Shown here: piece by piece, positions 2,517 to 41,201 of the stretch | How positions within the stretch are numbered: the first letter of the stretch is position 1 | Layout of the letters: each line of letters begins with the position of its first letter | Source: a virus | Taxonomy: Duplodnaviria; Caudoviricetes | IMG/VR virus record: IMGVR_UViG_3300005336_000019 | Coordinates: 12,513 to 76,512 of that record | Direction: 5' to 3' (one strand) | Length of the DNA stretch: 64,000 nt | Made by a program: the position numbers and the translations under genes | Notes under the pieces: generated by a model | What the model saw: only the letters and a program-made list of their open reading frames with translations | The model's database searches: none | What the model was told of the DNA's origin: nothing

Positions 2517-2975
2517 GTGAAGGCCATCGAATTCCCGGATGCGCTCCGGGAGTTGAAGATCGAAGGCGCCTCGGTGAAACCGGCCGAGGGCAAGCCAGGT
2601 TCCGGTGTGGAGCACGGCTTCATCGTCACGGGCCAGCATGGCGCCCGCATCGCCTGGCAGGTGGCCACGCAGGAGGACGGCCTGATGGCCGGTACCGGAA
2701 ACCCTGCCGCCTACCCATCGGCCGTGGCCGCCGCTCCCGACAGGCTCGTCTGCGCCGACGTCGAGGCGTCCATCGCCTGCTGGATCGGCCAGAACCTCGG
2801 TGAGCACATCAGCGAGATCGTCCGGTACAGCGAGACCCGGGACCGGGGCATCCGCTACGGCCTGCGGCTCGACCTGTACAGCGGGGGCCGGGTGTTCATC
2901 CAGGCCCTGTGGATTCTGGAGCCCGGAGAGGAACCGAACCGGGACAACAAGTACCGCATGCGCAACGCGGTCTGA
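2517..2975 (+). CDS. hypothetical protein
   Basis: RBS GGAAAGGGAGAAG, GTG. Confidence 0.8.
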   Translation: MKAIEFPDALRELKIEGASVKPAEGKPGSGVEHGFIVTGQHGARIAWQVATQEDGLMAGTGNPAAYPSAVAAAPDRLVCADVEASIACWIGQNLGEHISEIVRYSETRDRGIRYGLRLDLYSGGRVFIQALWILEPGEEPNRDNKYRMRNAV

Positions 2976-2990
2976 AGAAGGAGAAGACGG

Positions 2991-3356
2991 GTGGGCAGGG
3001 ACATCAGGGTGCACAAGGGGATCTACGCCAAGGGGACCCCCAGGGAGCGGCCGTCGGCATGGATCGAGGTGTCGGTTCCGCTCCAGCTTGAAGCTCACGA
3101 GCTGGTCGACGGACTCGGCGAGAACTTCCTGCGCAACGAGACCGACGTCGACTGGAACGAGCGACCGGCCAACCTCCCGGACTCCCTGACTCAGCAGGAG
3201 ATCGTCCGCATCTACAAGGACGAGCTGATGTACTGGGGCACCAACCTGGGCACCTGGTCCGAGAGTCTGAGCACCGACGAGGCGAAGACGGCCCGGGGCT
3301 GGCTCATGGACATCGTCCTGGCCGCCTTTCCGGAAATGCGGGGGTACCAGATATGA
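2991..3356 (+). CDS. hypothetical protein
   Basis: RBS AAGGAG, high GC3. Confidence 0.8.
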   Translation: MGRDIRVHKGIYAKGTPRERPSAWIEVSVPLQLEAHELVDGLGENFLRNETDVDWNERPANLPDSLTQQEIVRIYKDELMYWGTNLGTWSESLSTDEAKTARGWLMDIVLAAFPEMRGYQI

Positions 3357-4706: not shown

Positions 4707-5151
4707 GGGCGGCTGGATCCTGGCGATGTCCATCGAGCCGGAGCTGAGCGGGCTGGTCACGTTCTACCCGGAGGGGACCGACTTCCCGGTCCCGATGGAG
4801 GACCACACCAGCAAGCGCCAGATCCTGCACATCGACAACGGCTCGATCTGGGGCAAGAAGATCACGACCCGCCCCTTCTACCAGGTCGACGACAGCAACC
4901 AGTGCGAGCGGTTCGCCACCACGTTCTGCTCCCTCGGCTACACCACGAACGAGAAGCTGCTGCCGCACCAGGGCGGCGCCTTCTGGGCCTTCAACTGGTC
5001 CTCGCTCACGGTCGCCACGGTGCACATCGCCTCGCAGGTCGCCGACCACTACTTCAACGACCGGTACGACGAGGCGTGGGCCGTCGGCAAGGCGTTCGGC
5101 GACCAGATCCACGCCGCCGAGAACGCCCACTGGGAAGCCCAGGGGAAGTGA
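4609..5151 (+). CDS. hypothetical protein
   Basis: RBS AAGGAGAAG, ATG. Confidence 0.85.
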   Translation: MGARITTPLKGVRKTSAWPYAEMPQSKKPRARKGGWILAMSIEPELSGLVTFYPEGTDFPVPMEDHTSKRQILHIDNGSIWGKKITTRPFYQVDDSNQCERFATTFCSLGYTTNEKLLPHQGGAFWAFNWSSLTVATVHIASQVADHYFNDRYDEAWAVGKAFGDQIHAAENAHWEAQGK

Positions 5152-5155
5152 CCCG

Positions 5156-5533
5156 ATGGTGATGGTCAGCGATCCGGGCACGGTGCAGATCCCGCGCTCG
5201 GGGACGAACGTCGGCCGGGTCGAGGAGTGGTCCGGCCACCCCGGTACCTGGGACGGCTGGGCCGACATCCCGGGGGCTCCGACCGAGGAGCTGGTCTGCA
5301 ACGGCGGCAGCCGGGACTGGTGCCGGTACATGGTCACGAGGCGGTACCTGGACCACCTGCTCGACGAGCTGGGCGGCGCCACCCACTGGGGGCATGACCG
5401 GGACGCGGAGTTCACCGAGAAGTCCCGGATGGTCTCGCACTGCCTGGTCTTCATGAGCGAACTCCTGGCGGCGCACTACCAGGAGATCCGGCGGGACCGC
5501 ATGCGGGTTCGCCGGGAGGTACAGCAGGGCTGA
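5156..5533 (+). CDS. hypothetical protein
   Basis: High GC3. Confidence 0.8.
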   Translation: MVMVSDPGTVQIPRSGTNVGRVEEWSGHPGTWDGWADIPGAPTEELVCNGGSRDWCRYMVTRRYLDHLLDELGGATHWGHDRDAEFTEKSRMVSHCLVFMSELLAAHYQEIRRDRMRVRREVQQG

Positions 5534-5616
5534 TCCGGCTTCGGCTCGGCGGCGCACGGGCTCTGGTCCGTGCGTCTGCCGTACTGCCGCCGGGCAGGGA
5601 ATCGGAAGGGGAAGAG

Positions 5617-5952
5617 ATGCGAGCGTACTTCGAGACCAGCAACGGCGAGACGATCCCGCTGCCGGATCCAATGAGCCCCGAGCAGTCGGCCATCGTGTAC
5701 CTCACGGGTGGAACCGGCATCCGCCGGATCGACGACGAGACGATCGACGAGTTCGTACGTCGGGCCGATCTGTACGACACGTACATCGGCGGGATCAACC
5801 TGCTGGAGATCGGGACCGGCAAGCGTGTTCCGATCACTCGCCAGGTCATCACCGAGGCGATGGCCGGTCACCCGGTGCTCTGGACGAACGCTGGGCTCAT
5901 GACCCCGGAATCGTTCGACCGCATGATCCGCGTCGCCAAGTCGGCGCTGTAG
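5617..5952 (+). CDS. hypothetical protein
   Basis: RBS CGGAAGGGGAAG. Confidence 0.8.
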   Translation: MRAYFETSNGETIPLPDPMSPEQSAIVYLTGGTGIRRIDDETIDEFVRRADLYDTYIGGINLLEIGTGKRVPITRQVITEAMAGHPVLWTNAGLMTPESFDRMIRVAKSAL

Positions 5953-5972
5953 ACCAGGAGAGGGGAAGAGCG

Positions 5973-6398
5973 ATGAGTGAGCCGCTGAACACCGACGGCT
6001 GGGGAGAGGTGAAGGTCCGGACTCCGGGCTCGTTCGCCGACCCCCGGGAGGTGAACGCGGTGATCCGGGAGCTGTTCTGTCACGACAGCATCCTGGAGTA
6101 CCAGCGCAGGATCGCCGAGGCGGCCATGAGGGAAGCCGTGGCGGCCTGGCGCAGGGCGATGGCCAAGAAGGGCCTGAGCGCCGACAGTGACGCCGGTAAG
6201 GCGATCCTGGCGGCCGTGAACGGCGTCCTGGACGGCTTCGACCCGGAGAGCGACGAGTGGGACGGCTTCTTCCCGCCGGTCATGCTCTGCTCCGAGCACG
6301 ACAGCCCCGTGAAGCCGAGGTTCGGCAAGGGGATCGTCTTCTCGGCCTGCCCCGGCGTCCCGTGGTGCCGGGCTCACGAACCGGCGCGTGTCCAGTGA
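5973..6398 (+). CDS. hypothetical protein, C-terminal zinc-ribbon-like motif
   Basis: CSEH...GIVFSACPGVPWC. Confidence 0.8.
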   Translation: MSEPLNTDGWGEVKVRTPGSFADPREVNAVIRELFCHDSILEYQRRIAEAAMREAVAAWRRAMAKKGLSADSDAGKAILAAVNGVLDGFDPESDEWDGFFPPVMLCSEHDSPVKPRFGKGIVFSACPGVPWCRAHEPARVQ

Positions 6399-6721
6399 GC
6401 TACGAATGCCGGGGCTGCGGCGGCACCTGCTGCACGGGGATCGGGAGCGACCCCTGCACCTGCCCGCCGCCGCCCGAGCCGGAAGAGCAGGAGCTGTACC
6501 CCCGGCGGTCGCCGGGGGCGCACGGCAGGCACTGCACCTGGCCGGAGTGTGACGGCTCATGCCTGATCACGGTGACCGTCGAGTGGCGGGCGCTGGAGGC
6601 GTTCTACGAGGCGGCCCGGTGGGGCCGGGCGATGACGCCCAGCACGGCGGGTGAGCGCACCGGGATGGAGCTGGTGGCGCGGATCATCGAACAGGGCAAG
6701 AGGGGTGCGGAACGTGGCTGA
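6395..6721 (+). CDS. Cys-rich hypothetical protein
   Basis: GTGA coupling; CRGCGGTCC, CTC, CTWPEC. Confidence 0.75.
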   Translation: MSYECRGCGGTCCTGIGSDPCTCPPPPEPEEQELYPRRSPGAHGRHCTWPECDGSCLITVTVEWRALEAFYEAARWGRAMTPSTAGERTGMELVARIIEQGKRGAERG

Positions 6722-6818
6722 AGTGATCCGGGCGTTCGCCGGGGTCGTGGCGCTGATCGCCATGAAGAAGACCGAGATCGACCGCCGGAGGGCGGCCGGA
6801 AAGGGGAAGACGGCATGA
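6714..6818 (+). CDS. small hypothetical protein (34 aa)
   Basis: Fills gap, ATGA overlap with next gene. Confidence 0.5.
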   Translation: MAEVIRAFAGVVALIAMKKTEIDRRRAAGKGKTA

Positions 6819-7111
6819 CCACCCAGGACGAGAAGCTGGACATGCGCACGATCCACCTGCTGGCAGCGGCCAAAGAGCTGGCCGACCTGCTCTACAAGTG
6901 GAACGTGATCGACGAGTACGACCTGGTCATCCAGGACGGCCGCAATGGCGGCACCCCGTACCACCACGTGAACGAGGCGCTGGTGGCCGTGCTGAAGAAG
7001 CTCGGCACCGAGAACAAGGACGGCTTCTACGAGGGCGTCACCTCGGGCATGGACCCGCAGGAGGCACTGGACAACGCCATCGCCTACGAACGCCGCTACG
7101 ACGAGATCTGA
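6815..7111 (+). CDS. hypothetical protein
   Basis: High GC3. Confidence 0.8.
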   Translation: MTTQDEKLDMRTIHLLAAAKELADLLYKWNVIDEYDLVIQDGRNGGTPYHHVNEALVAVLKKLGTENKDGFYEGVTSGMDPQEALDNAIAYERRYDEI

Positions 7112-7143
7112 GACCGGAAGACACGGAGAGGGAGAGGAAGAAC

Positions 7144-7974
7144 ATGGGCGAGATCAGCAAGTACGAGGGCGGCGGCTCCGGAGCGGAGCTGAGCAAGCAG
7201 GACGGCCTGCCGGACCAGTCGTTCTCCGGGAAGGGTCAGCACTCCGGCCCGGTCCTGCTGGACATCTCGGGTGACTCGATCCACGGCACCGTGACGGTGG
7301 ACGCCGTCGACTTCGCCTCGGTCCGGGTCTACACCCGGTCCACGGTGCAGTCGGTGATCGACGCCGTCCGCAAGACGAAGATCTACCTGTCCGGCAGCAC
7401 GCTGACCGTGAAGGTGCCGGACTTCCAGGTCCCACCGACCGTGATCCAAGGAGGTGGCAGCCGGATGGTCTTCTCGGGCAACGTCTCCTTCGTGTCGGTC
7501 GGCCGGGGGGCCACGGTGATCGGCGGCTCCGGCTCCGGGGAGGACATGGTCCGGGTCGAGGTCACGCTGCCCCGACAGTCCGGCATCCGGGCCGACCTCG
7601 GCTCCGGCATGCTCGACGTGCACGGCGACCTCGTCGGCATCGACGGCGACCTGTCCTCGGGCTCGATCGCGGTCCACGGTTCGGTCGGCAAGGCCCGTGC
7701 CGAGCTGTCCTCCGGCTCGTTCCAGATCGGCCGGGTGACGGAGGGGATCGAAGCCACGGCGTCGTCCGGCAGCCTGAACGTGGGCGAGTACACCGGCTCC
7801 CACGCCAAGCTGCGGATCTCCTCCGGCAGCATGAACCTGAACGTCGGTCCGGCCGCCAGCGGCAGCATCGACGTCCGGGTCTCCTCCGGTTCGGCCAACA
7901 TCAGCGGAACCCGGGGGCGCACCGACCTGGACATCAGGACGAAGAAGTCCTCCGGCAGCATCAACCTCTACTGA
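7144..7974 (+). CDS. DUF4097-like beta-strand repeat protein
   Basis: Repeated SSGSx(I/L/M)xV units in C-terminal half. Confidence 0.75.
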   Translation: MGEISKYEGGGSGAELSKQDGLPDQSFSGKGQHSGPVLLDISGDSIHGTVTVDAVDFASVRVYTRSTVQSVIDAVRKTKIYLSGSTLTVKVPDFQVPPTVIQGGGSRMVFSGNVSFVSVGRGATVIGGSGSGEDMVRVEVTLPRQSGIRADLGSGMLDVHGDLVGIDGDLSSGSIAVHGSVGKARAELSSGSFQIGRVTEGIEATASSGSLNVGEYTGSHAKLRISSGSMNLNVGPAASGSIDVRVSSGSANISGTRGRTDLDIRTKKSSGSINLY

Positions 7975-7975
7975 C

Positions 7976-8458
7976 ATGCTGGACGCCGACCTCGTCCACG
8001 AGACGGGACACTTCAGCTACGCCGACGCCGAGCACCTGGCTGACCTGTGGAACCGGGCCTACCCGGCGATGCGGCAGATCATCACCCGGTACATCGAGAG
8101 CCAGCGGGAGTACATCGAGCGGAGGGGCTGGGTCATCGACCCGAATCACCCCCACGCCGAAGTGCTCCAGGAGCGCGCCACCCCGGAACGGAAGGCCCGG
8201 TACCGGCTGAAGCTGTCGGAAGAGCTGCGCCGGGACCTCGGCCAGCTCGACCGGGGCACGCACAAGCCGTGCACCCGCAGCCCGGGATGCTTCTCGGTGA
8301 CGGCCGCCTACATGGCGGTGCGGAGCCTGATCAGTCACAGCTCCCTCAACAGTGAGGGGCTGGCCAACATCTACCGCCTGGCCGCCGATCTGGCCGAGGC
8401 GGAGGAGCGGGTCAACGAGGCCCGCAAGAAGTGGCACCAGGAACAGGAGAAGAAGTGA
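7976..8458 (+). CDS. hypothetical protein
   Basis: High GC3. Confidence 0.8.
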   Translation: MLDADLVHETGHFSYADAEHLADLWNRAYPAMRQIITRYIESQREYIERRGWVIDPNHPHAEVLQERATPERKARYRLKLSEELRRDLGQLDRGTHKPCTRSPGCFSVTAAYMAVRSLISHSSLNSEGLANIYRLAADLAEAEERVNEARKKWHQEQEKK

Positions 8459-8697
8459 ACGCAGAAGTCGAGGTCCCCGTCGCCGAGAGCATCGCCGTGG
8501 GTCTGGCGATCGTCTTCTCGGATCTTCCGCAGAGCACCATCACGTGGATGTCCGAGCTGATGGTGCGCACCTGGCACGAGGGGCCGGACCGCTCCGACGA
8601 CCTGCTCTTCAACGCCCTCGACAAGGAGGTCCGGGCGGGCAACGAGGACGCCATCCGCATGGTCCTCGCCGCCGCCCGGCGCGGTCTGAAGGTCTGA
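8455..8697 (+). CDS. hypothetical protein
   Basis: GTGA coupling. Confidence 0.8.
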   Translation: MNAEVEVPVAESIAVGLAIVFSDLPQSTITWMSELMVRTWHEGPDRSDDLLFNALDKEVRAGNEDAIRMVLAAARRGLKV

Positions 8698-8767
8698 CTC
8701 CGAGGCCGAAACCCCTGGAAGGGGGTCGTGGGACGAATGGAAGTCCCGCCTGACGATGGCCGTCAGA
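8693..8767 (+). ncRNA. Hammerhead ribozyme, type II (HHR1)
   Basis: CTGAC-TCCGA-GGCC-GAAA-CCCCT-GGAA-GGGGG-TC^-GTGGGAC-GAATGGAA-GTCCCGC-CTGACGA-T-GGCC-GTCAG; complete core, predicted cleavage after 8727. Confidence 0.9.
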
Positions 8768-8795
8768 AGAATTCGGAACGGGAGGAGAACGCATC

Positions 8796-9017
8796 ATGGA
8801 ACTGCCCAACCGCGCCGAGGTGCGCAGCCAGATCAGCTCGAAGTTCCCGGGCCTGCCCAACGACACCCTGGACTGGGTGGCGGGCATGCTCTCCGACAAG
8901 ATCGAGGCCGACTGGCAGACCGCCGACGCCGAGTTCCACCGCGAGATGGAGCGCGCGATCCGGGCCGGTGAAGAGCACGCGATCCTCGTGGCCCTCGCCG
9001 CGCTCAAGGCCGTCTGA
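8796..9017 (+). CDS. hypothetical protein directly downstream of HHR1
   Basis: RBS GGAGGAG, ATG. Confidence 0.8.
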   Translation: MELPNRAEVRSQISSKFPGLPNDTLDWVAGMLSDKIEADWQTADAEFHREMERAIRAGEEHAILVALAALKAV

Positions 9018-9032
9018 CCTACGGGTCGCATT

Positions 9033-9090
9033 GAAGGGGCTCCGGTTGCGGCCGGGGCCCCTTCTGCGTATCGTCTTTGACCTAGGCCAT
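9033..9090 (+). promoter_or_regulatory. Terminator-like hairpin with -35 (TTGCGG) in loop, -10 TATCGT and box TTGACCTAGGCCAT
   Basis: GAAGGGGCTCCGG-TTGCGG-CCGGGGCCCCTTC; 17-bp spacer to TATCGT 9069-9074; box 9077-9090. Confidence 0.7.
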
Positions 9091-9105
9091 TCGGATGGGA
9101 GAGAC

Positions 9106-9390
9106 GTGAGCGAGGACGAATTCGAAGCCCTGGCCGATGAGTTACGGGCTTCATGGAGCGGCGACCGCGAACGCTGGGACGGTCTTCGCGAGGAGCTGAC
9201 GGACAAGTCCCTGTGCCTGCGCTGGGACGGCGACCACCGCCTTCTCCTGGAGCAGCACACCAGCAGGCAGACGGCGTTGATCGCCACCACGTACGGCCGC
9301 AGGCAGGACGACCGGATCCGGTACGCCGTGATCCTGGAGCGCAGCCTGAGATCGGGCCGCATGGAGACCAAGGGGATGGAGCCCTCATGA
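9106..9390 (+). CDS. hypothetical protein containing an in-frame TTA codon
   Basis: GTG at 9106 after GGGAG; TTA at 9142. Confidence 0.75.
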   Translation: MSEDEFEALADELRASWSGDRERWDGLREELTDKSLCLRWDGDHRLLLEQHTSRQTALIATTYGRRQDDRIRYAVILERSLRSGRMETKGMEPS

Positions 9391-9707
9391 ATCACCCGGA
9401 GACCGCAGAGATCGACATTCCGGCCGTGGACGGCACGCTGCTGCACATCGTGCTGAACAAGGAGGAGGGCACCGGGAGGTTCACCTACTCCAGCATGGTC
9501 GAGGTGCAGCAGCACACCCCGTACGGCCTGCGCCCGCTGGTCACGTACAGCATGGGCGCGGTGCTGCGGGCGCCCCGCAACAAGCCGTTCCGGCTGCACG
9601 ACGGGGACGCCGGACTCGTGATCGAGGGCCACTGGCTGATCACGGTCGGGGACTGGATGGAGATGCTGAGCGAGGCCAGCGTCGACACGTGGAAGGTGGA
9701 CATCTGA
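9387..9707 (+). CDS. hypothetical protein
   Basis: ATGA coupling. Confidence 0.8.
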   Translation: MNHPETAEIDIPAVDGTLLHIVLNKEEGTGRFTYSSMVEVQQHTPYGLRPLVTYSMGAVLRAPRNKPFRLHDGDAGLVIEGHWLITVGDWMEMLSEASVDTWKVDI

Positions 9708-9907
9708 TGGCAAGCCTGTCGATCGAGTTCGACAACGACGAGAGCTACCACACGGGACCGCCGCAGGTTCCCCTCGGCAGCGACTTCGGGTACGCCTCCC
9801 TGAAGGGGTACCGGATCGACGAAGGCGGCTTCGTGGTCATGGAGTTCGACAACCACGCCATCCGCAAGGTGCCGGTCCGGCGCCTGCTGCGCATCACGGA
9901 GCTGTGA
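9707..9907 (+). CDS. hypothetical protein
   Basis: TGATG coupling. Confidence 0.75.
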   Translation: MASLSIEFDNDESYHTGPPQVPLGSDFGYASLKGYRIDEGGFVVMEFDNHAIRKVPVRRLLRITEL

Positions 9908-9908
9908 C

Positions 9909-10370
9909 ATGCCGCTGATCTGGACTCAAGGGAACCTGCTGGAGTCGGCGGCGCAAGGACTGGTCAGCCCGGTCAACTGCGTCGGCGTGCCGGGTGCCGG
10001 GCTGGCCCGGCAATTCAAGGACCGCTGGCCCATGCAGGTCGAGGAGTACGTGACCTTCTGCCGGGAGGGCCGGATGAAGCCCGGCCTGGTGCACGATGCA
10101 CTTCTGCCGGACGGGCGCCGGATCCTGAGCATCGCCACCAAGCGGCACTGGCGGGACAACTCACGGATCGAGGACGTGGATCGGGGGCTGGCCGCTCTGA
10201 AGGAGTACCTGGACGAGACGGGCCTGATCTCGGTCGCTCTCCCGGCGCTCGGCTGCGGGCTGGGCGGCCTGCCGAAGGCTCTCGTAGCCCGGCGGGTGCA
10301 GTTCTGGCTGGCCGACAATTTCTCCGTGGTCTACGTCTACGGGCTCGACGAGCCGGAGGTGTCGGCGTGA
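9909..10370 (+). CDS. Macrodomain protein (DarG/TARG1-like ADP-ribosyl hydrolase)
   Basis: GNLL, VNCVGVPGAGLARQFK, TKRHWR, ALPALGCGLGGL motifs. Confidence 0.9.
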   Translation: MPLIWTQGNLLESAAQGLVSPVNCVGVPGAGLARQFKDRWPMQVEEYVTFCREGRMKPGLVHDALLPDGRRILSIATKRHWRDNSRIEDVDRGLAALKEYLDETGLISVALPALGCGLGGLPKALVARRVQFWLADNFSVVYVYGLDEPEVSA

Positions 10371-10564
10371 GCAAGGAGATCATCCGGGTGACCGTCGTCT
10401 TCGAGTACGAGGTCGACCCGGAGTTGTACCCCGGAGCGAAAACGCCCGGCGAGCGGGCGGAAGTCGACCGGGAGAACTTCGCCAAGAACCCGGACCTGGT
10501 GGTGGAAACGCTCGCCGACAAGGGAGCGAAGTCCGTCACCCTCGGGTCTTTCACGATCAACTGA
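10367..10564 (+). CDS. hypothetical protein
   Basis: GTGA coupling. Confidence 0.75.
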   Translation: MSKEIIRVTVVFEYEVDPELYPGAKTPGERAEVDRENFAKNPDLVVETLADKGAKSVTLGSFTIN

Positions 10565-10584
10565 TCACCGGAACAGGAGAAGAC

Positions 10585-11190
10585 ATGGCGATGACCCGCG
10601 AAGAGGAGACGGCGCTGGCGAAGGAGATGGCCGAGGAGATGGGCCTGAACCTGCCGTACGCCGCCCAGGTGGGCTTCGAGTACGACGTGAAGGCGGCCCG
10701 GCAGAAGGCCGAGGAACTGCGAGACCTGGCCCGCAGGCGGGAGCAGGAGTCGCGCGACTCGTTCGATCGGTGCGACACGGACGGCGCCCTCTCGCAGTGG
10801 GCGAGCGGGATCAACGCCGAGAAGTACCGGCTCCAGGCCGACATCGTCGAGAACGGCGGCATGTGGTACTTCCCGGCCCTCTTCGACCTGGAGGGCAACC
10901 TGGTTCCGGCCCGGGAGGCGTACGGCCAGTACGGATCCTTCTGGTCTCTGCTGGACGCCGACGGGAACCGCACCGGCCAGACCTTCAACGAGTCGAAGGC
11001 CCAGAACGACAAGGTGAAGATCCGCAACGATGCCCGGAAGGGCTACTACGTCGGCTCGGTTCTGGCCCCGGCCAGAGTCGTGACGCGCGGCCAGTCCGTC
11101 ACCTCGGTCGCCTGCCACATCGACCGGAACGACGGCGGCTGGGACCCGGACGTGATGGTGCTCGACAACGGGAAGGGCGAGCAGGAGTGA
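10585..11190 (+). CDS. hypothetical phage protein
   Basis: RBS CAGGAGAAG; SFDRCDTDGALSQWA motif. Confidence 0.85.
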   Translation: MAMTREEETALAKEMAEEMGLNLPYAAQVGFEYDVKAARQKAEELRDLARRREQESRDSFDRCDTDGALSQWASGINAEKYRLQADIVENGGMWYFPALFDLEGNLVPAREAYGQYGSFWSLLDADGNRTGQTFNESKAQNDKVKIRNDARKGYYVGSVLAPARVVTRGQSVTSVACHIDRNDGGWDPDVMVLDNGKGEQE

Positions 11191-12450: not shown

Positions 12451-12885
12451 ATGGAGTTCCACGAGCGCTTCGCCGAGAAGGCTGCCGACACCGACTACTC
12501 CCGCTACCCCCAGCTCCAGGCGCTGAGCAAGTACGACATCAACGCGACGGCCGAGGCTCTGCGCCTGACCGCGATCCAGCTCGGCACCCACGTGCGCGGG
12601 TGGGGCATGCTGGACGACCTGACGCTCGACGAGCCGACGGTCATCACGGCCCTGCTGGCGCTGAAGCGGCGCTGGGACGACGAGGGGCACCTGGTCTCGG
12701 TCGACTTCGAGGAGTACTGGGACGCCACCGACACCCACAACTTCCCCTCCTCCCTGCTGGAGGAGATGAAGCGCCACCTCGTCCGCCAGTTCCTGGAGGG
12801 CAAGAAGGCCGAGCACGTCGCGGTCAGCAACCCGTACGGGATCTGGCTGTTCGACAAGGCCGTCCTGGAGGGGATCTTCAAGTGA
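12451..12885 (+). CDS. hypothetical protein
   Basis: High GC3, RBS. Confidence 0.85.
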   Translation: MEFHERFAEKAADTDYSRYPQLQALSKYDINATAEALRLTAIQLGTHVRGWGMLDDLTLDEPTVITALLALKRRWDDEGHLVSVDFEEYWDATDTHNFPSSLLEEMKRHLVRQFLEGKKAEHVAVSNPYGIWLFDKAVLEGIFK

Positions 12886-37328: not shown

Positions 37329-37642
37329 CGACCGAACTGCGAGTCGAAAGGCGTGTCGTCCCACGGCTCCGGGTCGTCCGACGTGTCGCGCGTAGCCGTG
37401 TAGACCCACGTCCAGTAGACGTACCCCTTCTGCACGGGCACCTGCTTGGCGCTCTCGACCCAGTACGTCTGCCCCTCCAGCGTGGTGAATCCGTCACCCT
37501 TGTGCAGGAAGGGGAGGCTGGGCACCGTCTGGCCGGGCGCCGAAGGGGTGATCATGATCCGGTATTGCTGGGGCCAGCCGGATGACATGCCGGTCCGCTT
37601 CGGCAGCTCAATCACTGTGATCTCGTCGATCTCGTGGTCCAC
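37325..37642 (-). CDS. hypothetical protein
   Basis: RBS GAGGAAAAGGA. Confidence 0.8.
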   Translation of the reverse strand: MDHEIDEITVIELPKRTGMSSGWPQQYRIMITPSAPGQTVPSLPFLHKGDGFTTLEGQTYWVESAKQVPVQKGYVYWTWVYTATRDTSDDPEPWDDTPFDSQFGR

Positions 37643-37786
37643 TTTTCCTTTTCCTCTCCGATACGAGAATGCGGGGGTCGCCTACTACGACCGCAGGGGA
37701 TCTTTCACCAGGAGAGCTGCCACGCAGATCACTGGAGTTGGCCTCACCCTGCCCAAGCGGAGTAAGGATTTCCGCAGGCACCGCCG

Positions 37787-37859
37787 TGCTCCTGGCAGGA
37801 ATTGAACCTGCGACATCCGGATCCGGAATCCGGCGCTCTATCCCCTGAGCTACAGGAGC
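37787..37859 (-). tRNA. tRNA-Arg(CCG)
   Basis: Cloverleaf; CCGGA-TTCCGGA-TCCGG; GGTTCAA T-loop; no encoded CCA. Confidence 0.95.
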
Positions 37860-37868
37860 TTTCCTCTC

Positions 37869-38264
37869 TCACCAGATGTCGTACAGCATCCGGCGAGGAA
37901 CCTTCTCGGCCTTCTCGTACAGCCGACGTTCGAGTTCGCCCTTCGTGCGGCGCCCGGCTTCCAGCTTGCTCTTCACGTAGCGCCGGTTGGCGCGCTCGTG
38001 CTTACCAGCCCAGTAGGTCCGGCTGGAACTGGGGGTCCAGGCCCCGGTGTAGGTCCACCAGCGAGCGGTACGCCTCACCTTCCGGGGCTGCGGCCTGCGG
38101 CCCTGCCTCTCGGCGTCACGGAGTTCCGCAGCGCTGTAGCGCAGGTCGTAGACCTCGTGCTCGCGCACCGGAGTGATCGGCCGCTTGCGCCAGTACATCC
38201 TGTAGCCGTCAGGCCAGTCGCGCTGGTCGAACTTTCCGGGCGTGTGATGCGTCGTCTTGCCCAT
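37869..38264 (-). CDS. very basic (Arg/Trp-rich) hypothetical protein inside tRNA array
   Basis: RBS AGGAGG, ATG; MGKTTHH...HERANRR...LYDIW. Confidence 0.8.
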   Translation of the reverse strand: MGKTTHHTPGKFDQRDWPDGYRMYWRKRPITPVREHEVYDLRYSAAELRDAERQGRRPQPRKVRRTARWWTYTGAWTPSSSRTYWAGKHERANRRYVKSKLEAGRRTKGELERRLYEKAEKVPRRMLYDIW

Positions 38265-38365
38265 CGGAATTCATCCTCCTAGGGCCGCGAATTTCGCGGA
38301 CCTAGGTGAATCCGGTGACGATGTCCATCACCCCTCCAAGCTGTTCAGGCACGGTTGTTCCCAAG

Positions 38366-38463
38366 TGCGCGAGGCAGGGATCGAACCTGCACTGGACGTC
38401 TCCACAGGGCCTTTCCGAGTGCCCTGTTCGCCGGGCTCTGACTCGGAGTTCCCTTACACGCGC
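38366..38463 (-). ncRNA. tRNA-like RNA with non-canonical D region and 10-nt anticodon-position loop (possible pseudoknot)
   Basis: Acceptor GCGCGTG/CTCGCGC-A, T arm GCAGG-TTCGATC-CCTGC, variable arm, ACAGGGC-ACTCGGAAAG-GCCCTGT; TCCGAGT in D region complementary to ACTCGGA. Confidence 0.75.
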
Positions 38464-38554
38464 GACCGCACTGCGCAATGCGGTCCTTTACCACCGACTG
38501 TAATTCCGACCGGGTTTTTCAGACCACGGAAGGATATGGTGTCGTCGGCACACG

Positions 38555-38627
38555 CTCTCCTGACTGGACTTGAACCAGTAACATCCGGATTAACAATCCG
38601 GCGCTCTGCCGGTTGAGCTACAGGAGA
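38555..38627 (-). tRNA. tRNA-Asn(GTT)
   Basis: CCGGA-TTGTTAA-TCCGG; cloverleaf. Confidence 0.95.
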
Positions 38628-38762
38628 TCGAATCTGAAATTGTAGTGGGCCTCATCCCTAGCACCACGCGGCGCACCGACCTTGTTCTGCTGCGCTTCTC
38701 AACTGTTCCGGTTGTCGGGCGGATGGCAACCGGACCGCACTCCTATCTCCGCCACGTGCACG

Positions 38763-38834
38763 CTCCCCCGTCTGGACTTGAACCAAAACTTCCGATTCCA
38801 GAGACCGGCGGTCTGCCAATTAACCTACGGGGGA
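38763..38834 (-). tRNA. tRNA-Gln(CTG)
   Basis: CCGGT-CTCTGGA-ATCGG; U1-A72. Confidence 0.92.
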
Positions 38835-38853
38835 TCGCTCTTGAATTGTTGGC

Positions 38854-38945
38854 AACCGGACGGCAATGCTTCCACGCATGGACTATCTTCGCATGTATGT
38901 CCCACCCGCCACAGTGGGGCTGCGTTGATAGCTTACCGTCCGGCC
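38854..38945 (-). ncRNA. putative structured RNA (multi-branch) between tRNA-Phe and tRNA-Gln
   Basis: 13-bp closing stem GGCCGGACGGTAA/TTGCCGTCCGGTT plus four internal helices. Confidence 0.55.
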
Positions 38946-38947
38946 AG

Positions 38948-39023
38948 TGGCCCCGGCCCGATTTGAACGGGCGACCTCTCGCTTTTCAGGCGAGCGCTCT
39001 TTCGCGAACTGAGCTACAGGGCC
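38948..39023 (-). tRNA. tRNA-Phe(GAA)
   Basis: CTCGC-CTGAAAA-GCGAG. Confidence 0.93.
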
Positions 39024-39174
39024 TTGCACCCCTTGATGTATAGCTGGGCAGGGGCCGCCCTCCACTCGCCTCCCGGAGAAGGTTGGCTCATGGACTCGCT
39101 TTGCCTCACTCTCTGCCCGGTGGATAGTGGCCTTGTGAGCCACGAACTCCACCGGAATCTGCCTCCGAAGCCAG

Positions 39175-39248
39175 CGGTCCCGACGGGATTTGAACCCGCG
39201 ACCTCTCGGATGACAACCGAGTGCTCTGCCGAACTGAGCCACGAGACC
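39175..39248 (-). tRNA. tRNA-Asp(GTC)
   Basis: CTCGG-TTGTCAT-CCGAG; G73. Confidence 0.95.
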
Positions 39249-39273
39249 ATTGCTTCTTACCGCTGTTGAGTTG

Positions 39274-39320
39274 AAAAGGGAGCCCCGCTTTCCCGGCCTC
39301 CGCCTTACGGCGGGGCTCCC
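39274..39320 (-). terminator. intrinsic terminator within tRNA array
   Basis: GGGAGCCCCGC...GCGGGGCTCCC-TTTT on minus. Confidence 0.65.
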
Positions 39321-39343
39321 GATAGACCCGTCAGGGGGTCTCG

Positions 39344-39417
39344 TGGAGATGGAGGGATTCGAACCCCCGTCCTTCCGATCCGTAGTCGGCTGCCCCATCC
39401 AACTGGGCCACACCTCC
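39344..39417 (-). tRNA. tRNA-Arg(ACG)
   Basis: GCCGA-CTACGGA-TCGGA; GGTTCGAATCC. Confidence 0.93.
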
Positions 39418-39507
39418 ATCAGCCTTTCACCCTTCGCGCCAAGCGTGACCAAGGCAGGATCCAGGCCGACCGCATCCAAGCCCCAGGAAGCCGTGAGGAT
39501 GCGGCAG

Positions 39508-39580
39508 TACGCCCTACTGGACTTGAACCAGTGACACGAGGATTAAGAATCCCCTGCTCTGCCAACTGAGCTAAGGGCGC
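39508..39580 (-). tRNA. tRNA-Lys(CTT)
   Basis: GGGGA-TTCTTAA-TCCTC. Confidence 0.95.
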
Positions 39581-39587
39581 GCGTTCT

Positions 39588-39710
39588 TCAGTTCTGTCTG
39601 TCGTCCTTGGGGCCCCAGTAGTGGCCCGTGTAGACGTGGACGGGGTATCCGTCCTTCTGCACCTTCTTCAGGTGCCCTTCGTACGTCCGAGCCTTGCACT
39701 TACAGCTCAC
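39588..39710 (-). CDS. 40-aa basic peptide within tRNA array
   Basis: RBS AGAAGG, GTG; MSCKCKARTYEGHLKKVQKDGYP... Confidence 0.55.
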   Translation of the reverse strand: MSCKCKARTYEGHLKKVQKDGYPVHVYTGHYWGPKDDRQN

Positions 39711-39829
39711 GATCGCACCTTCTTTCTTGTCCCGATTCCAACAGGAACCCCTGGTTTCCCGGGACAGCGTTCCACCAGGGGTCTGCCTAGCGTCCGGCCG
39801 GTTCTGTCCTCCCGATCCTTCTGCTGGCA

Positions 39830-39860
39830 TACGGCTTACGGATTATGAGTCCGCGCCGCA
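39830..39860 (-). ncRNA. free-standing CAU anticodon stem-loop
   Basis: TGCGGC-GCGGA-CTCATAA-TCCGT-AA-GCCGTA; no D or T arm. Confidence 0.55.
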
Positions 39861-39866
39861 CCTTCG

Positions 39867-39940
39867 TATCCCTGACTGGACTTGAACCAGTGGCCTTTCC
39901 CTTATGAGGGGAGTGCTCTGACCGACTGAGCTACAGGGAT
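39867..39940 (-). tRNA. tRNA with CAT anticodon (Met or Ile2)
   Basis: CTCCC-CTCATAA-GGGAA; A1-U72 paired, so not a typical initiator. Confidence 0.9.
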
Positions 39941-39945
39941 CTGCG

Positions 39946-40018
39946 AGCCCCCGACCGGAATTGAACCGATGGCATCCGACTTACGAAGACGGCGCTCTAC
40001 CGACTGAGCTACGGAGGC
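39946..40018 (-). tRNA. tRNA-Thr(CGT)
   Basis: CCGTC-TTCGTAA-GTCGG (one U-U mismatch). Confidence 0.92.
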
Positions 40019-40020
40019 AT

Positions 40021-40095
40021 GAACTCCGGGTCCTAGGAGGGACGCAGACTTGCATGGGATAGCGAGCTGAGAAACAACGCTAGGCCCCGGAGTTC
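40021..40095 (-). ncRNA. long-stem RNA A
   Basis: GAACTCCGGG-G-CCTAG...CTAGG-A-CCCGGAGTTC. Confidence 0.55.
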
Positions 40096-40218
40096 TGTCG
40101 GGAGAATCCTGCCCGATCTTTAATCGACCACCCGCTGGATCGATGGACAGGTTCCTCCCTTTGCGAGACACCAACCTCGCGATTCCCAGGCTGTAGACCT
40201 GGCGGCAGCGGGAACTGC

Positions 40219-40284
40219 GGACTCCGGGCGGAGTGGACGACGTCGTAAGGGAAAGAGGTACTTCCGATACGCCGCCCGGAGTCC
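40219..40284 (-). ncRNA. long-stem RNA B (related to A)
   Basis: GGACTCCGGGCGG...CCGCCCGGAGTCC. Confidence 0.55.
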
Positions 40285-40286
40285 AG

Positions 40287-40361
40287 TCGGAATGGCGGGA
40301 TTTGAACCCGCGACCTCTCGCTCCCGAAGCGAGTGCTCTACGCAAGCTGAGCCACATTCCG
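40287..40361 (-). tRNA. tRNA-Pro(CGG)
   Basis: CTCGC-TTCGGGA-GCGAG; C1-G72. Confidence 0.95.
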
Positions 40362-40410
40362 ATTGAAGGTTCCCCAGGGTGACGGGGGGGTTGTAACCCC
40401 GGGGAACCAG

Positions 40411-40485
40411 CAGGGATAGCAGGATTTGAACCTACGACACGCCGCTTTGGAGACGGCTGCTCTGGCCGAACTGAGCTATATCCCT
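40411..40485 (-). tRNA. tRNA-Trp(CCA)
   Basis: GCCGT-CTCCAAA-GCGGC; G73. Confidence 0.95.
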
Positions 40486-40525
40486 TTGCCCGCCGGGAAG
40501 GTTTCCCCTCCCGGCTACAAGTACT

Positions 40526-40531
40526 ACTCTA
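40526..40531 (-). promoter_or_regulatory. -10 element TAGAGT heading the tRNA/ncRNA array
   Basis: Same TAGA(G/C)T hexamer precedes several other operons. Confidence 0.5.
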
Positions 40532-40574
40532 CCGCAGAACTTCGCTATCTCATAGCGGTTTTCGGTGACGAGCC

Positions 40575-41201
40575 TCACGCACGACGGAGGAAAGAGAAGC
40601 CCGTTCCACTGCTCGTGCACGTCTGAAGCGCCACCGAAGCGCCGAGACCGGCCGACGGGAAGGTGCCACCCTGGCTGCCCCGCTTCGCCCAGCCGTGGCC
40701 GTACACCCGGTACGTGCCCGCCAGGGCGCCCGAGCCGATGACCACCTTCCGGCCCACGGGCAGGTCATCCATCCAGGACCAGCCCATGTAGTTGTGCCCC
40801 GCCAGCGTCCTCACCCCTGCCGGGTAGTACAGCGTCAGCTTGCCCTGGTCGATGCAGCGCTGGGCCGACGCAACGGCCGACCCGCAGAAGACGTACCCGC
40901 CGATCCGGGTGACCGGCTCGGCGGGCTTCCTCTTCACCGTCTTGGTCGGCTTCGACTTGGGCTTCACCACGGGCTTCGGCTTGACCGTGGGAGCCTTCGT
41001 GCGGACCGGCGGAGTGAGGGTCGGCCGGGGCTCGGGTTTCGGTCCCTCGATCCGGCCGAGCGGTGGCAGCTCGATGCGCACGGAGGCGACCGCTCGCGCC
41101 GTGGCCGGTCGCTCCTCCGTTCCGGCCGCCGTGGCGGCCGTGCAGGTCGAGGCCACCAGGACCCCGGCAGCACTGAGCGCCAGCAGTCGTCTCCGTCTCA
41201 C
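40575..41201 (-). CDS. Secreted Pro/Lys-linker protein with C-terminal sortase-like domain
   Basis: Signal peptide; LAGHN and VALQTC motifs. Confidence 0.65.
   Translation of the reverse strand: MRRRRLLALSAAGVLVASTCTAATAAGTEERPATARAVASVRIELPPLGRIEGPKPEPRPTLTPPVRTKAPTVKPKPVVKPKSKPTKTVKRKPAEPVTRIGGYVFCGSAVASAQRCIDQGKLTLYYPAGVRTLAGHNYMGWSWMDDLPVGRKVVIGSGALAGTYRVYGHGWAKRGSQGGTFPSAGLGASVALQTCTSSGTGFSFLRRA

Follow-up and report, generated by a model that had tools for sequence, protein, structure and literature searches.

Conserved structured RNA modules fill the spacers of a transfer RNA gene cluster in an uncultured relative of cluster BM Streptomyces phages

The spacers of a transfer RNA (tRNA) gene cluster, located in a 64-kb stretch of viral DNA (IMG/VR record IMGVR_UViG_3300005336_000019, positions 12,513 to 76,512; hereafter the window), are occupied by RNA structures that are also found in related phages. 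Helices are kept by compensatory changes in eight of the ten spacers, in up to 12 related arrays, and this pattern of substitution shows that selection maintains the spacer folds; a sequence-only reading that preceded this analysis had noted structure in nearly every spacer, and sense-strand folds are indeed found in these eight. As a whole, the cluster appears to be a mixed operon, comprising 11 tRNAs, two small protein genes and conserved sense-strand RNAs, which fill the spacers almost end to end.

The window covers 64 kb out of a 76.5-kb viral fragment, whose completeness is about 40%, and its sequence assigns it to an uncultured phage related to Kela and Satis, two Streptomyces phages of cluster BM. 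Near-identical DNA is also present in further soil and plant metagenome runs from seven studies. Megablast of positions 37600-40620 against 50,697 phage records matched 20 of them, all Streptomyces phages, but only six aligned to the array beyond a single tRNA: Kela and JustBecause, with 84% identity over 81% of the query, and Satis, Quantum, Kradal and EhyElimayoE, with 82% identity over 44% of it. Satis and JustBecause are described as the founders of cluster BM, with genomes of about 185 kb, prolate heads and reported tRNA counts of 13 and 14, respectively (PMC6687918). The Kela array is contained in a long block of genes on the same strand, downstream of a DnaB-like helicase, a primase and a cysteine protease. 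Related arrays were retrieved with a 131-amino-acid (aa) protein encoded in the cluster (seven IMG/VR loci and nine metagenome loci), and one further array was obtained with a DNA pattern; together with Kela and Satis, about ten distinct full arrays are available, in which the tRNA order is kept.

Eleven tRNA genes were identified by ARAGORN between 37786 and 40485, on the minus strand like all the features described below, and the same 11 were found above the Rfam gathering score; no other Rfam family exceeded its gathering score in the whole window. Along the transcription strand the genes are tRNA-Trp(CCA) (40410-40485), tRNA-Pro(CGG) (40286-40361), tRNA-Thr(CGU) (39945-40018), tRNA-Met(CAU) (39866-39940, 4 nucleotides (nt) past tRNA-Thr), tRNA-Lys(CUU) (39507-39580), tRNA-Arg(ACG) (39343-39417), tRNA-Asp(GUC) (39174-39248), tRNA-Phe(GAA) (38947-39023), tRNA-Gln(CUG) (38762-38834), tRNA-Asn(GUU) (38554-38627) and tRNA-Arg(CCG) (37786-37859). 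None of the 11 encodes CCA, in agreement with the earlier description of 11 CCA-less tRNAs. In the same order, the spacers measure 48, 267, 4, 285, 89, 94, 150, 112, 134 and 694 nt; spacers of about 90-270 nt had been proposed, and seven of the ten do measure 89-285 nt. In the relatives, some lengths are held tightly (Trp-Pro 43-48 nt, Asp-Phe 145-150 nt and Phe-Gln 99-113 nt) and others vary widely (Lys-Arg 0-90 nt and Arg-Asp 22-463 nt); the shortest include the Lys-Arg and Gln-Asn spacers of Satis (0 and 17 nt), the Lys-Arg spacer of array L006 (9 nt) and the Arg-Asp spacer of array L008 (22 nt).

Folding energies were compared with 200 dinucleotide shuffles of each spacer. The resulting z-scores were -5.2 for Pro-Thr, -4.0 for Trp-Pro, -3.3 for Arg-Asp and -3.25 for Met-Lys; weaker values were obtained for the region between tRNA-Asn and the following open reading frame (ORF) (-2.8), Phe-Gln (-2.3), Lys-Arg (-1.3), Asp-Phe (-1.3) and Gln-Asn (+1.8). 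For 40 pieces of 150 nt, drawn at random from the same strand but not from the array, the mean z-score was -0.49 (standard deviation 1.04) and the minimum was -2.86; thus, just four spacers stand out by energy. The shuffle control that had been suggested for the spacers gives, therefore, a divided answer: four spacers lie beyond the random range, but modules E4, E6 and E8 are no better folded than shuffled sequences.

Covariation provides stronger evidence than folding energy. It was counted on RNAalifold structures, and shuffling of the 3′ partners (500 shuffles) and sliding of the 3′ partners were used as controls. The Trp-Pro spacer contains module E1, for which 11 sequences give 14 pairs, six of them compensatory, with 98% paired; the observed number of compensatory pairs was reached by 1 of 500 shuffles, and slid partners gave 0-2. 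For E2, in the Pro-Thr spacer, 25 of 43 pairs are compensatory in 11 sequences (94.9% paired; 0/500 shuffles; slid 3-8), and for E3, in the 5′ part of the Met-Lys spacer, 8 of 39 in nine sequences (95.1% paired; 0/500; slid 3-4). E6, in the Asp-Phe spacer, has 11 compensatory pairs out of 35 in eight sequences (95% paired; 14/500; slid 1-4), E7, in the Phe-Gln spacer, 14 out of 30 in ten sequences (99% paired; 0/500; slid 0-3), and E9b with its 5′ hairpin, between tRNA-Asn and the ORF, 16 out of 32 in 12 sequences (95.6% paired; 0/500; slid 1-5). When percent paired, compensatory cells or the covariation score were considered, none of the 500 shuffles reached the observed value for any of the six modules; the count of further pair types was unremarkable for five of the six (21, 461, 276, 226 and 445 of 500 shuffles). 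Covariation analysis on related phages had been indicated as the appropriate check, and in these six modules it yields more compensatory pairs than any slid control and than all or nearly all of the shuffles. It is thinner for E4 (4 of 25 pairs compensatory), E5 (2 pairs, four sequences) and E8 (8 of 25, four sequences).

The six modelled structures contain 267 G.U cells and 13 A.C cells, and several of the G.U pairs are invariant; this count is biased towards G.U, as the structures were predicted on the tRNA strand. The excess of G.U over A.C indicates that the folds belong to RNA of the tRNA sense, rather than to the opposite strand or to duplex DNA.

Module E1 (40368-40408) starts 2 nt past tRNA-Trp and is a 14-pair hairpin with a C-rich loop, in which a run of 6-8 C is present in 10 of 11 sequences. 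The core of E2 is about 185 nt long (40101-40285, coordinates being taken from alignment columns) and is formed by P1 (40219-40284), a 14-pair hairpin whose inner loop contains nine invariant positions, by a joiner (40204-40218), also with nine invariant positions, by the short hairpins P2 (40186-40202) and P3 (40163-40180), and by P4 (40101-40159), a long two-tier hairpin. The apical loop of P4 (40130-40137) can pair with five bases of the joiner, consistently in 11/11 sequences; the variable position of this contact is C/G in eight sequences and T/A in three, with both sides changing together. This double change, found in three sequences and consistent with the pairing in all 11, argues for a pseudoknot; pseudoknots had been predicted among the spacers, and one module, E2, bears this out. 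The T:A form appears to be present in two E2 subtypes. When tertiary partners of the invariant E2 loop were sought by pairwise covariation, the noise was too high for the result to be used. In L003, L008 and Satis, E2 constitutes the whole spacer of 168-182 nt, and in L007 and L019 it stays behind whichever tRNA-type gene precedes it.

E3 (39731-39861) consists of four hairpins. H1 (39829-39861) has a stem of 5 base pairs (bp) and a 7-nt loop, like the anticodon arm of tRNA-Met, with one base changed in L008; H3 (39746-39783) shows no change along about 37 nt in any of nine sequences, the flanks of which diverge. E3 is kept in Satis, although no ORF follows it there. E6 (39040-39173) combines a closing stem (39067-39173), which surrounds a two-tier arm (39117-39156), with a hairpin on its 3′ side (39040-39065), while E7 (38854-38945) is a three-way junction with a 13-pair closing stem, including three invariant G.U pairs and a near-invariant one.

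E9 is composed of three parts. E9a (38464-38550) contains a hairpin at 38489-38550, with five of the nine pairs of its helix 1 compensatory, and a second one at 38464-38485, which abuts E9b. E9b (38366-38463) is a tRNA-like cloverleaf without an anticodon loop: the acceptor stem is formed by 7 bp from the 5′ and 3′ ends, with three compensatory pairs, and is followed by A and then C, as in true tRNAs; the D-like stem encloses a hairpin insert of about 40 nt; the position of the anticodon arm is taken by a 4-bp stem with a 4-nt loop in 12/12 sequences, not by 5 bp and 7 nt; and the T arm has 5 bp and a 7-nt loop, with three compensatory pairs and 100% of the cells paired. No Rfam tRNA match was obtained for E9b at E<=10, and ARAGORN made no call on it, with or without introns. 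A tRNA mimic had been expected in the payload of the array, and E9b, with an acceptor stem and a T arm but no anticodon loop, corresponds to it. E9c (38278-38306) is a perfect palindromic hairpin that immediately precedes the ribosome-binding site of the 131-aa ORF. Being invariant in eight sequences, it is uninformative for covariation; it may serve as an operator, either translational or DNA-level, or as a processing site. Across the modules, many unpaired positions are invariant, as in the inner loop of P1 and the joiner of E2 and in H3 of E3, suggesting sequence-specific contacts.

E1, E2, E6 and E7 were found in 10/10 full arrays and E3 and E9 in 9/10, by nhmmer and alignment; the most divergent array, L007, is without E3 and retains just the 3′ part of E9. 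E4 is present in six arrays, E5 and E8 in four each, and E2b in two. E1, E2, E3, E6, E7 and E9 represent therefore a core, and E2b, E4, E5 and E8 are accessory; of the roughly 8-10 RNAs first proposed as payload, the six core modules hold, but the four others are missing in several relatives. Among the accessory modules, E2b (40019-40100) is an extra long hairpin, common to L019 only, with compensatory changes in the alignment; E4 (39420-39505) consists of two hairpins. E5 (39278-39341) is a short hairpin followed by an 11-pair GC-rich stem and a T run; the stem is followed by 4-5 T in three of four sequences, the T run being missing in L004. E8 (38645-38755) is a hairpin (38707-38734) inside a weaker outer fold, and its spacer is different in Kela, Satis and L008. 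All modules are single-copy: no further copy was found in the rest of the window, nor in 61 kb of Kela, and E2 is single-copy across the whole Kela and Satis genomes.

None of the modules corresponds to a known RNA family. The Rfam scan proposed for the spacers, with GOLLD, ROOL, Y RNA and ribozymes resembling that of hepatitis delta virus (HDV) among the listed candidates, gave no match in any spacer at E<=10 on 37500-40700, nor at E<=0.1 in seven relatives; for GOLLD and ROOL, in addition to the lack of an Rfam match, the largest module is about 185 nt, versus more than 500 nt for those RNAs. A distant blastn search with E2 and E7 found only Kela and JustBecause, where the matches fall under no annotated feature. 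An exact 23-nt E3 pattern had no matches in genome contigs and, among viral contigs, only BM-like ones. A gapped E2 pattern, with at least 120 genome and 29 viral matches, was too loose: none of 120 genome loci is E2 by nhmmer, and only BM-like contigs were confirmed among the viral matches. A covariance model of E2 (R1) recovered Kela and Satis and found nothing in 3 + 101 Streptomyces genomes, which is a weak negative, since 26-150 of about 5,000-11,000 first-look candidates per genome were scored. A model of E9b (R2) matched 37 of 101 Streptomyces genomes at 23-35 bits, compared with 130-161 bits for true homologues; the four best matches are ordinary tRNA-Leu(UAG) genes, and these matches were discarded as E9b homologues. 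Thus blastn, patterns with nhmmer and the E2 and E9b models, with their limited reach, found no module homologue outside the BM-like clade. The E2 joiner bears what we take to be a resemblance to type I-E repeats; a CRISPR-repeat mimic (Racr) was considered for it and rejected, as no CRISPR-DR family matched at E<=10. The Racr paper makes no mention of tRNA. No publication on these spacers turned up in literature searches aimed at them, supplementary tables being outside their scope; this is not proof of novelty.

RNase P cuts the 5′ ends of tRNAs and of tRNA-like acceptor/T-arm structures, and CCA-less precursors are cut after the discriminator, CCA being then added. If transcription of the array yields a single precursor or a small number of them, RNase P would cut the 5′ end of each tRNA and of the tRNA-like element, the 3′ endonuclease for CCA-less tRNAs would cut past each discriminator, and each module would be freed as a discrete RNA with its 5′ end buried in a helix. 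The freed RNAs would act on their own during infection, like RNAC and RNAD of phage T4, beyond spacing the tRNAs; the preferred function, which is speculative, is that of ligands or decoys for tRNA-binding or RNA-surveillance proteins of the host or of the phage. The chances that the modules are stand-alone small RNAs, released and acting in trans, are judged to be about even. That they matter in their own right is suggested by four features: tRNAs presumably mature without them where they are absent (Thr-Met, 4 nt; Satis Lys-Arg, 0 nt, and Gln-Asn, 17 nt); they contain long invariant unpaired stretches; they have complex folds, including the pseudoknot and the junctions; and the position of E2 is kept behind any preceding tRNA-type gene. 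Likewise, the 4-nt Thr-Met and the 0-nt Satis Lys-Arg spacers, together with tRNAs lying 0-1 nt apart in Gilson, a phage of another Streptomyces phage cluster, indicate that structure is unneeded for the processing of neighbouring genes.

RNA-library contigs from three studies lie on the spacers: X19 at 40046-40252 (207 nt, three differences), X15 at 39752-39901 (no differences) and X20 at 39029-39175 (five differences); X17, from a library guessed to be of RNA, lies at 38771-38921 and 38968-39117, with no differences in either segment. These contigs lend weak support to expression of the spacers. Four RNA-library runs leave several bins of the array uncovered, which says nothing either way. 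A leader (40486-40574) precedes the first gene: a GC hairpin (z-score -3.4) abuts tRNA-Trp, and a conserved block at 40515-40574, found in 10 of 11 arrays, combines a short hairpin with the motif TAGAGT about 40 nt upstream of tRNA-Trp. This block is a possible promoter of the array; a promoter scan with a sigma-70-type consensus found none in the array, including at the TAGAGT block. A terminator scan returned three terminator-like sites versus 2.8 expected, none of which is a module. E5 looks like an intrinsic terminator, and the scan probably made no call on it owing to a loop over its size limit.

Several points weigh against the action of the modules as independent small RNAs. E6, E4 and E8 do not fold better than their shuffles; the RNA-library contigs carry no ends, strand or level and may be DNA carry-over; and the covariation rests on about ten independent lineages, all from one phage clade. 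Furthermore, an 80-aa frame with a conserved ATG (39588-39830) crosses E3 H2-H4 into a 40-aa ORF. Finally, the start of the helices close to the tRNA ends and a fixed C after the discriminator fit 3′-end processing equally well.

This last point introduces an alternative that is possible, if somewhat doubtful: the modules would be cis-acting aids to processing or folding without a life after cleavage, which guide or protect the 3′ ends of the CCA-less tRNAs, prevent the tRNAs from misfolding together and allow the excision of two small mRNAs. Helices were said to begin a few nt after the tRNA 3′ ends, and in the window they do start 1-5 nt past them. A C directly follows the discriminator in 11/11 tRNAs of the window, the next base being T or G, never giving CC; the same discriminator-C without CC is present in 99/99 distinct tRNA-plus-flank combinations of the relatives, followed by T, G or rarely A, and 32 of the 99 distinct trailers begin with TGG, which is the base of the trailer helix. 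The tRNA 3′ ends have in this way the form of a partial CCA, stopping at the first C. The same alternative is favoured by the arrangement of the two ORFs, the 131-aa one bracketed by E9b and the next tRNA and the 40-aa one by E3 and tRNA-Lys, according to a tRNA-punctuation logic, and by the theta ribozymes located next to CCA-less phage tRNAs, for which processing of the 3′ trailers is proposed (PMC10879173). However, trailers without structure exist (the Thr-Met spacer of 4 nt, the Satis Lys-Arg and Gln-Asn spacers of 0 and 17 nt, and the L008 Arg-Asp spacer of 22 nt), and a pseudoknot, three-way junctions and long invariant unpaired stretches would be unnecessary in a plain insulator. It is very unlikely that at least one module is a new self-cleaving ribozyme, which would cut its own 5′ end and trim the tRNA 3′ trailer, as is proposed for theta ribozymes. 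The modules are indeed directly 3′ of CCA-less tRNAs, E2 is pseudoknotted, and Kela encodes an RNA ligase, the enrichment of an RNA ligase family in theta-ribozyme phages being reported in PMC10879173; but no ribozyme family matched 37500-40700 at E<=10, E1 is simply a hairpin, and E2 opens with an unbroken hairpin of 14 pairs, not with an HDV-like nested double pseudoknot. Four unrelated folds would all be required to be catalytic, and a CCA-adding enzyme was looked for without success in Kela, Satis and the 76.5-kb fragment.

Little credit can be given to the idea that the modules are functionless relics, that is, decayed tRNA genes, or what introns or mobile insertions have left behind in a hotspot. 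In sister arrays, tRNA-like genes are indeed interrupted by 59-373 nt of inserted sequence and an HNH-like ORF is present, and accessory modules are gained and lost among relatives; yet 95-99% of the cells stay paired while the spacers of the lineages are just 54-65% identical, each core module is kept by 9-10 of the 10 arrays, and no residual tRNA signal was detected at E<=10. Barely credible is the proposal that the features are small proteins, antisense transcripts or DNA palindromes (operators or origins) and not sense RNA. In its favour, long ORFs can be drawn over the array, the 80-aa frame spans E3 H2-H4, and E3 H3 and E9c are near-perfect invariant inverted repeats. Against it, the long ORFs run through tRNA genes and the differences in spacer length (168, 182, 184, 186 and 200 nt for E2; 99 or 111-113 nt for E7) are not multiples of three, arguing that the modules are not protein-coding; the predominance of G.U over A.C (267 to 13) points to sense RNA; and the 80-aa frame, open in six of nine arrays, has a frameshift in L006 and runs at once into a stop in Satis, both of which retain E3.

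For the stand-alone small RNAs, the closest precedent is given by RNAC and RNAD of T4 (species 1 and 2 RNAs), small non-coding RNAs from the T4 tRNA region, whose roles are described as unknown (PMC3014915; PMC9697503). They are similar to the modules in being non-coding, located in a phage tRNA cluster and on the tRNA strand; T4 has two such RNAs, compared with six core and four accessory modules, and the likeness is one of location and type. Unlike T4, the host is a high-GC actinobacterium, E9b is an anticodon-less cloverleaf and E2 is pseudoknotted. RNAC and RNAD are reportedly cut from the same precursors by the tRNA-processing enzymes. The earlier proposal of an undescribed system is thus only partly retained: the modules have no Rfam counterpart, but the arrangement has a precedent in the T4 tRNA region. 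We regard the modules as new RNA families in a known type of arrangement.

E9b can be compared also with YrlA of the Y RNA family (RF02553), tRNA-like partners of Ro60, since both are non-coding RNAs with a tRNA-like domain. YrlA of Mycobacterium smegmatis is described as RNase P-cut and CCA-tailed, and for YrlA RNAs a location within about 4 kb of a Ro60 (TROVE) gene, on the same strand, is given (PMC4201824). The Ro-binding stem of YrlA takes the anticodon position and is made by the RNA ends, and a loop caps the acceptor-like stem; in E9b the acceptor stem is open, and a closed mini-hairpin occupies the anticodon position. In the array region, RF02553 produced a single match (23.7 bits, E 0.06), over tRNA-Met and tRNA-Thr, and none in the spacers. 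A TROVE-domain protein is encoded by both Kela and Satis, but at about 36 kb from the array, unlike the neighbourhood of about 4 kb of YrlA; no TROVE match was found in the 76.5-kb fragment, and synteny with Kela would place this region beyond the fragment end. In Kela, gp136, annotated as ‘Ro-like RNA binding protein’, adjoins the RNA ligase gp137 (Kela record 84649-87085; L169 4650-7086). The intergenic gap next to these genes contains a sub-threshold YrlA match (36.3 bits versus a gathering score of 69, E 5e-5), and an unannotated tRNA with a 17-nt anticodon-loop insert is also present there (the sites being L169 7214-7284 and 8424-8508). The gene content shows that the clade invests in RNA surveillance or repair, which does not tie these proteins to the modules.

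Theta (HDV-like) ribozymes resemble the modules in being structured RNAs directly 3′ of CCA-less phage tRNAs; only 4.5% of theta-associated tRNAs are reported to encode CCA (PMC10879173). The modules differ from them in the lack of an HDV-like topology and of an Rfam match, and hosts and phage groups are also different. The HDV nested double pseudoknot was rejected for E1 and for the first helix of E2, which are uninterrupted hairpins, and, by inspection only, for E6 and E7. A functional analogy is offered by spacer RNAs that are by-products of tRNA-operon processing and act in trans: the 3′ external transcribed spacer of the Escherichia coli leuZ tRNA operon is said to be a sponge of small RNAs. 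Such RNAs are short, largely unstructured and derived from a cellular operon, whereas the phage modules are long and highly structured. The 6C RNA of Actinobacteria has two hairpins with C-rich loops and is encoded by a cellular gene. E1 is like 6C for its stable hairpin and for the loop run of 6-8 C, but it is a single hairpin, and no Rfam 6C match was obtained at E<=10 in the array region.

The two small ORFs of the array are both, by their pattern of conservation, protein-coding and conserved. The 40-aa ORF of the Met-Lys spacer (39588-39710; Kela gp196) has a GTG start and a purine-rich ribosome-binding site, and its variable sites are distributed as 6/6/14 over the three codon positions in seven sequences; the 131-aa ORF of the Asn-Arg spacer (37869-38264; Kela gp203) has 81-97% identity in seven relatives. 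Both are annotated in Kela as hypothetical proteins, and no Pfam or PHROGs family was found for either. The designation of the spacers as non-coding in the sequence-only reading is appropriate for most of them, but not for Met-Lys and Asn-Arg. In L005 (3547-4009) and in L024, a 463-nt Arg-Asp spacer contains an ORF with paired Cys and His motifs; it looks like an HNH homing endonuclease, in which case the array would be an insertion hotspot.

Further variation concerns the tRNA genes themselves. Split tRNA-like genes are present in sister arrays, at L001 2686-2855 (Kela), L002 2466-2699 (Satis), L003 4248-4711, L019 about 2955-3126, and L007 2369-2503 and L019 about 1795-1929; insertions measuring 59, 83, 141 and about 373 nt separate the halves. 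These genes were called by ARAGORN in intron mode only, so their anticodon calls are unreliable, and they gave no match to group I introns or to other Rfam families at E<=0.1. ARAGORN found no split or intron-containing tRNAs in the window, with introns up to 400 nt. In the metagenome relative L022 (about 310-401), an extra tRNA is located between tRNA-Asn and the E9 region; from its ARAGORN reading, SeC(tca), it is possibly a TGA suppressor. In Gilson (L170, 68553-80611), the tRNAs abut at 0-1 nt or flank small ORFs, and the array is adjoined by a transfer-messenger RNA gene and by a 539-aa ‘RNA-binding protein’.

Phage tRNA clusters are usually read as codon-supply or anti-defence sets of tRNAs, and their spacers are left unannotated. 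Here, five or more RNA folds of the spacers show covariation on a par with that of accepted RNA families, and none of these folds has an Rfam counterpart. If released and active, these RNAs would provide a second and richer case beside the 50-year-old puzzle of T4 RNAC and RNAD, one that is genetically tractable, since Satis and JustBecause grow on Streptomyces lividans; they would add new RNA classes to the catalogue, and tRNA punctuation would be a general phage route to small RNAs. A more specific form of this proposal, rather unlikely at present, is that the array is a multi-RNA cassette for host takeover or counter-defence, with E9b, E3 H1, E1, E2, E6 and E7 released by the tRNA-processing machinery as decoys or ligands, either of host proteins binding or cutting tRNAs or of the Ro-like protein and the RNA ligase of the phage itself; if true, the tRNA operon would double as the delivery system for about half a dozen new functional RNA classes. 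Even as mere processing aids, the modules would still define the way in which CCA-less tRNAs mature when the host is an actinobacterium.

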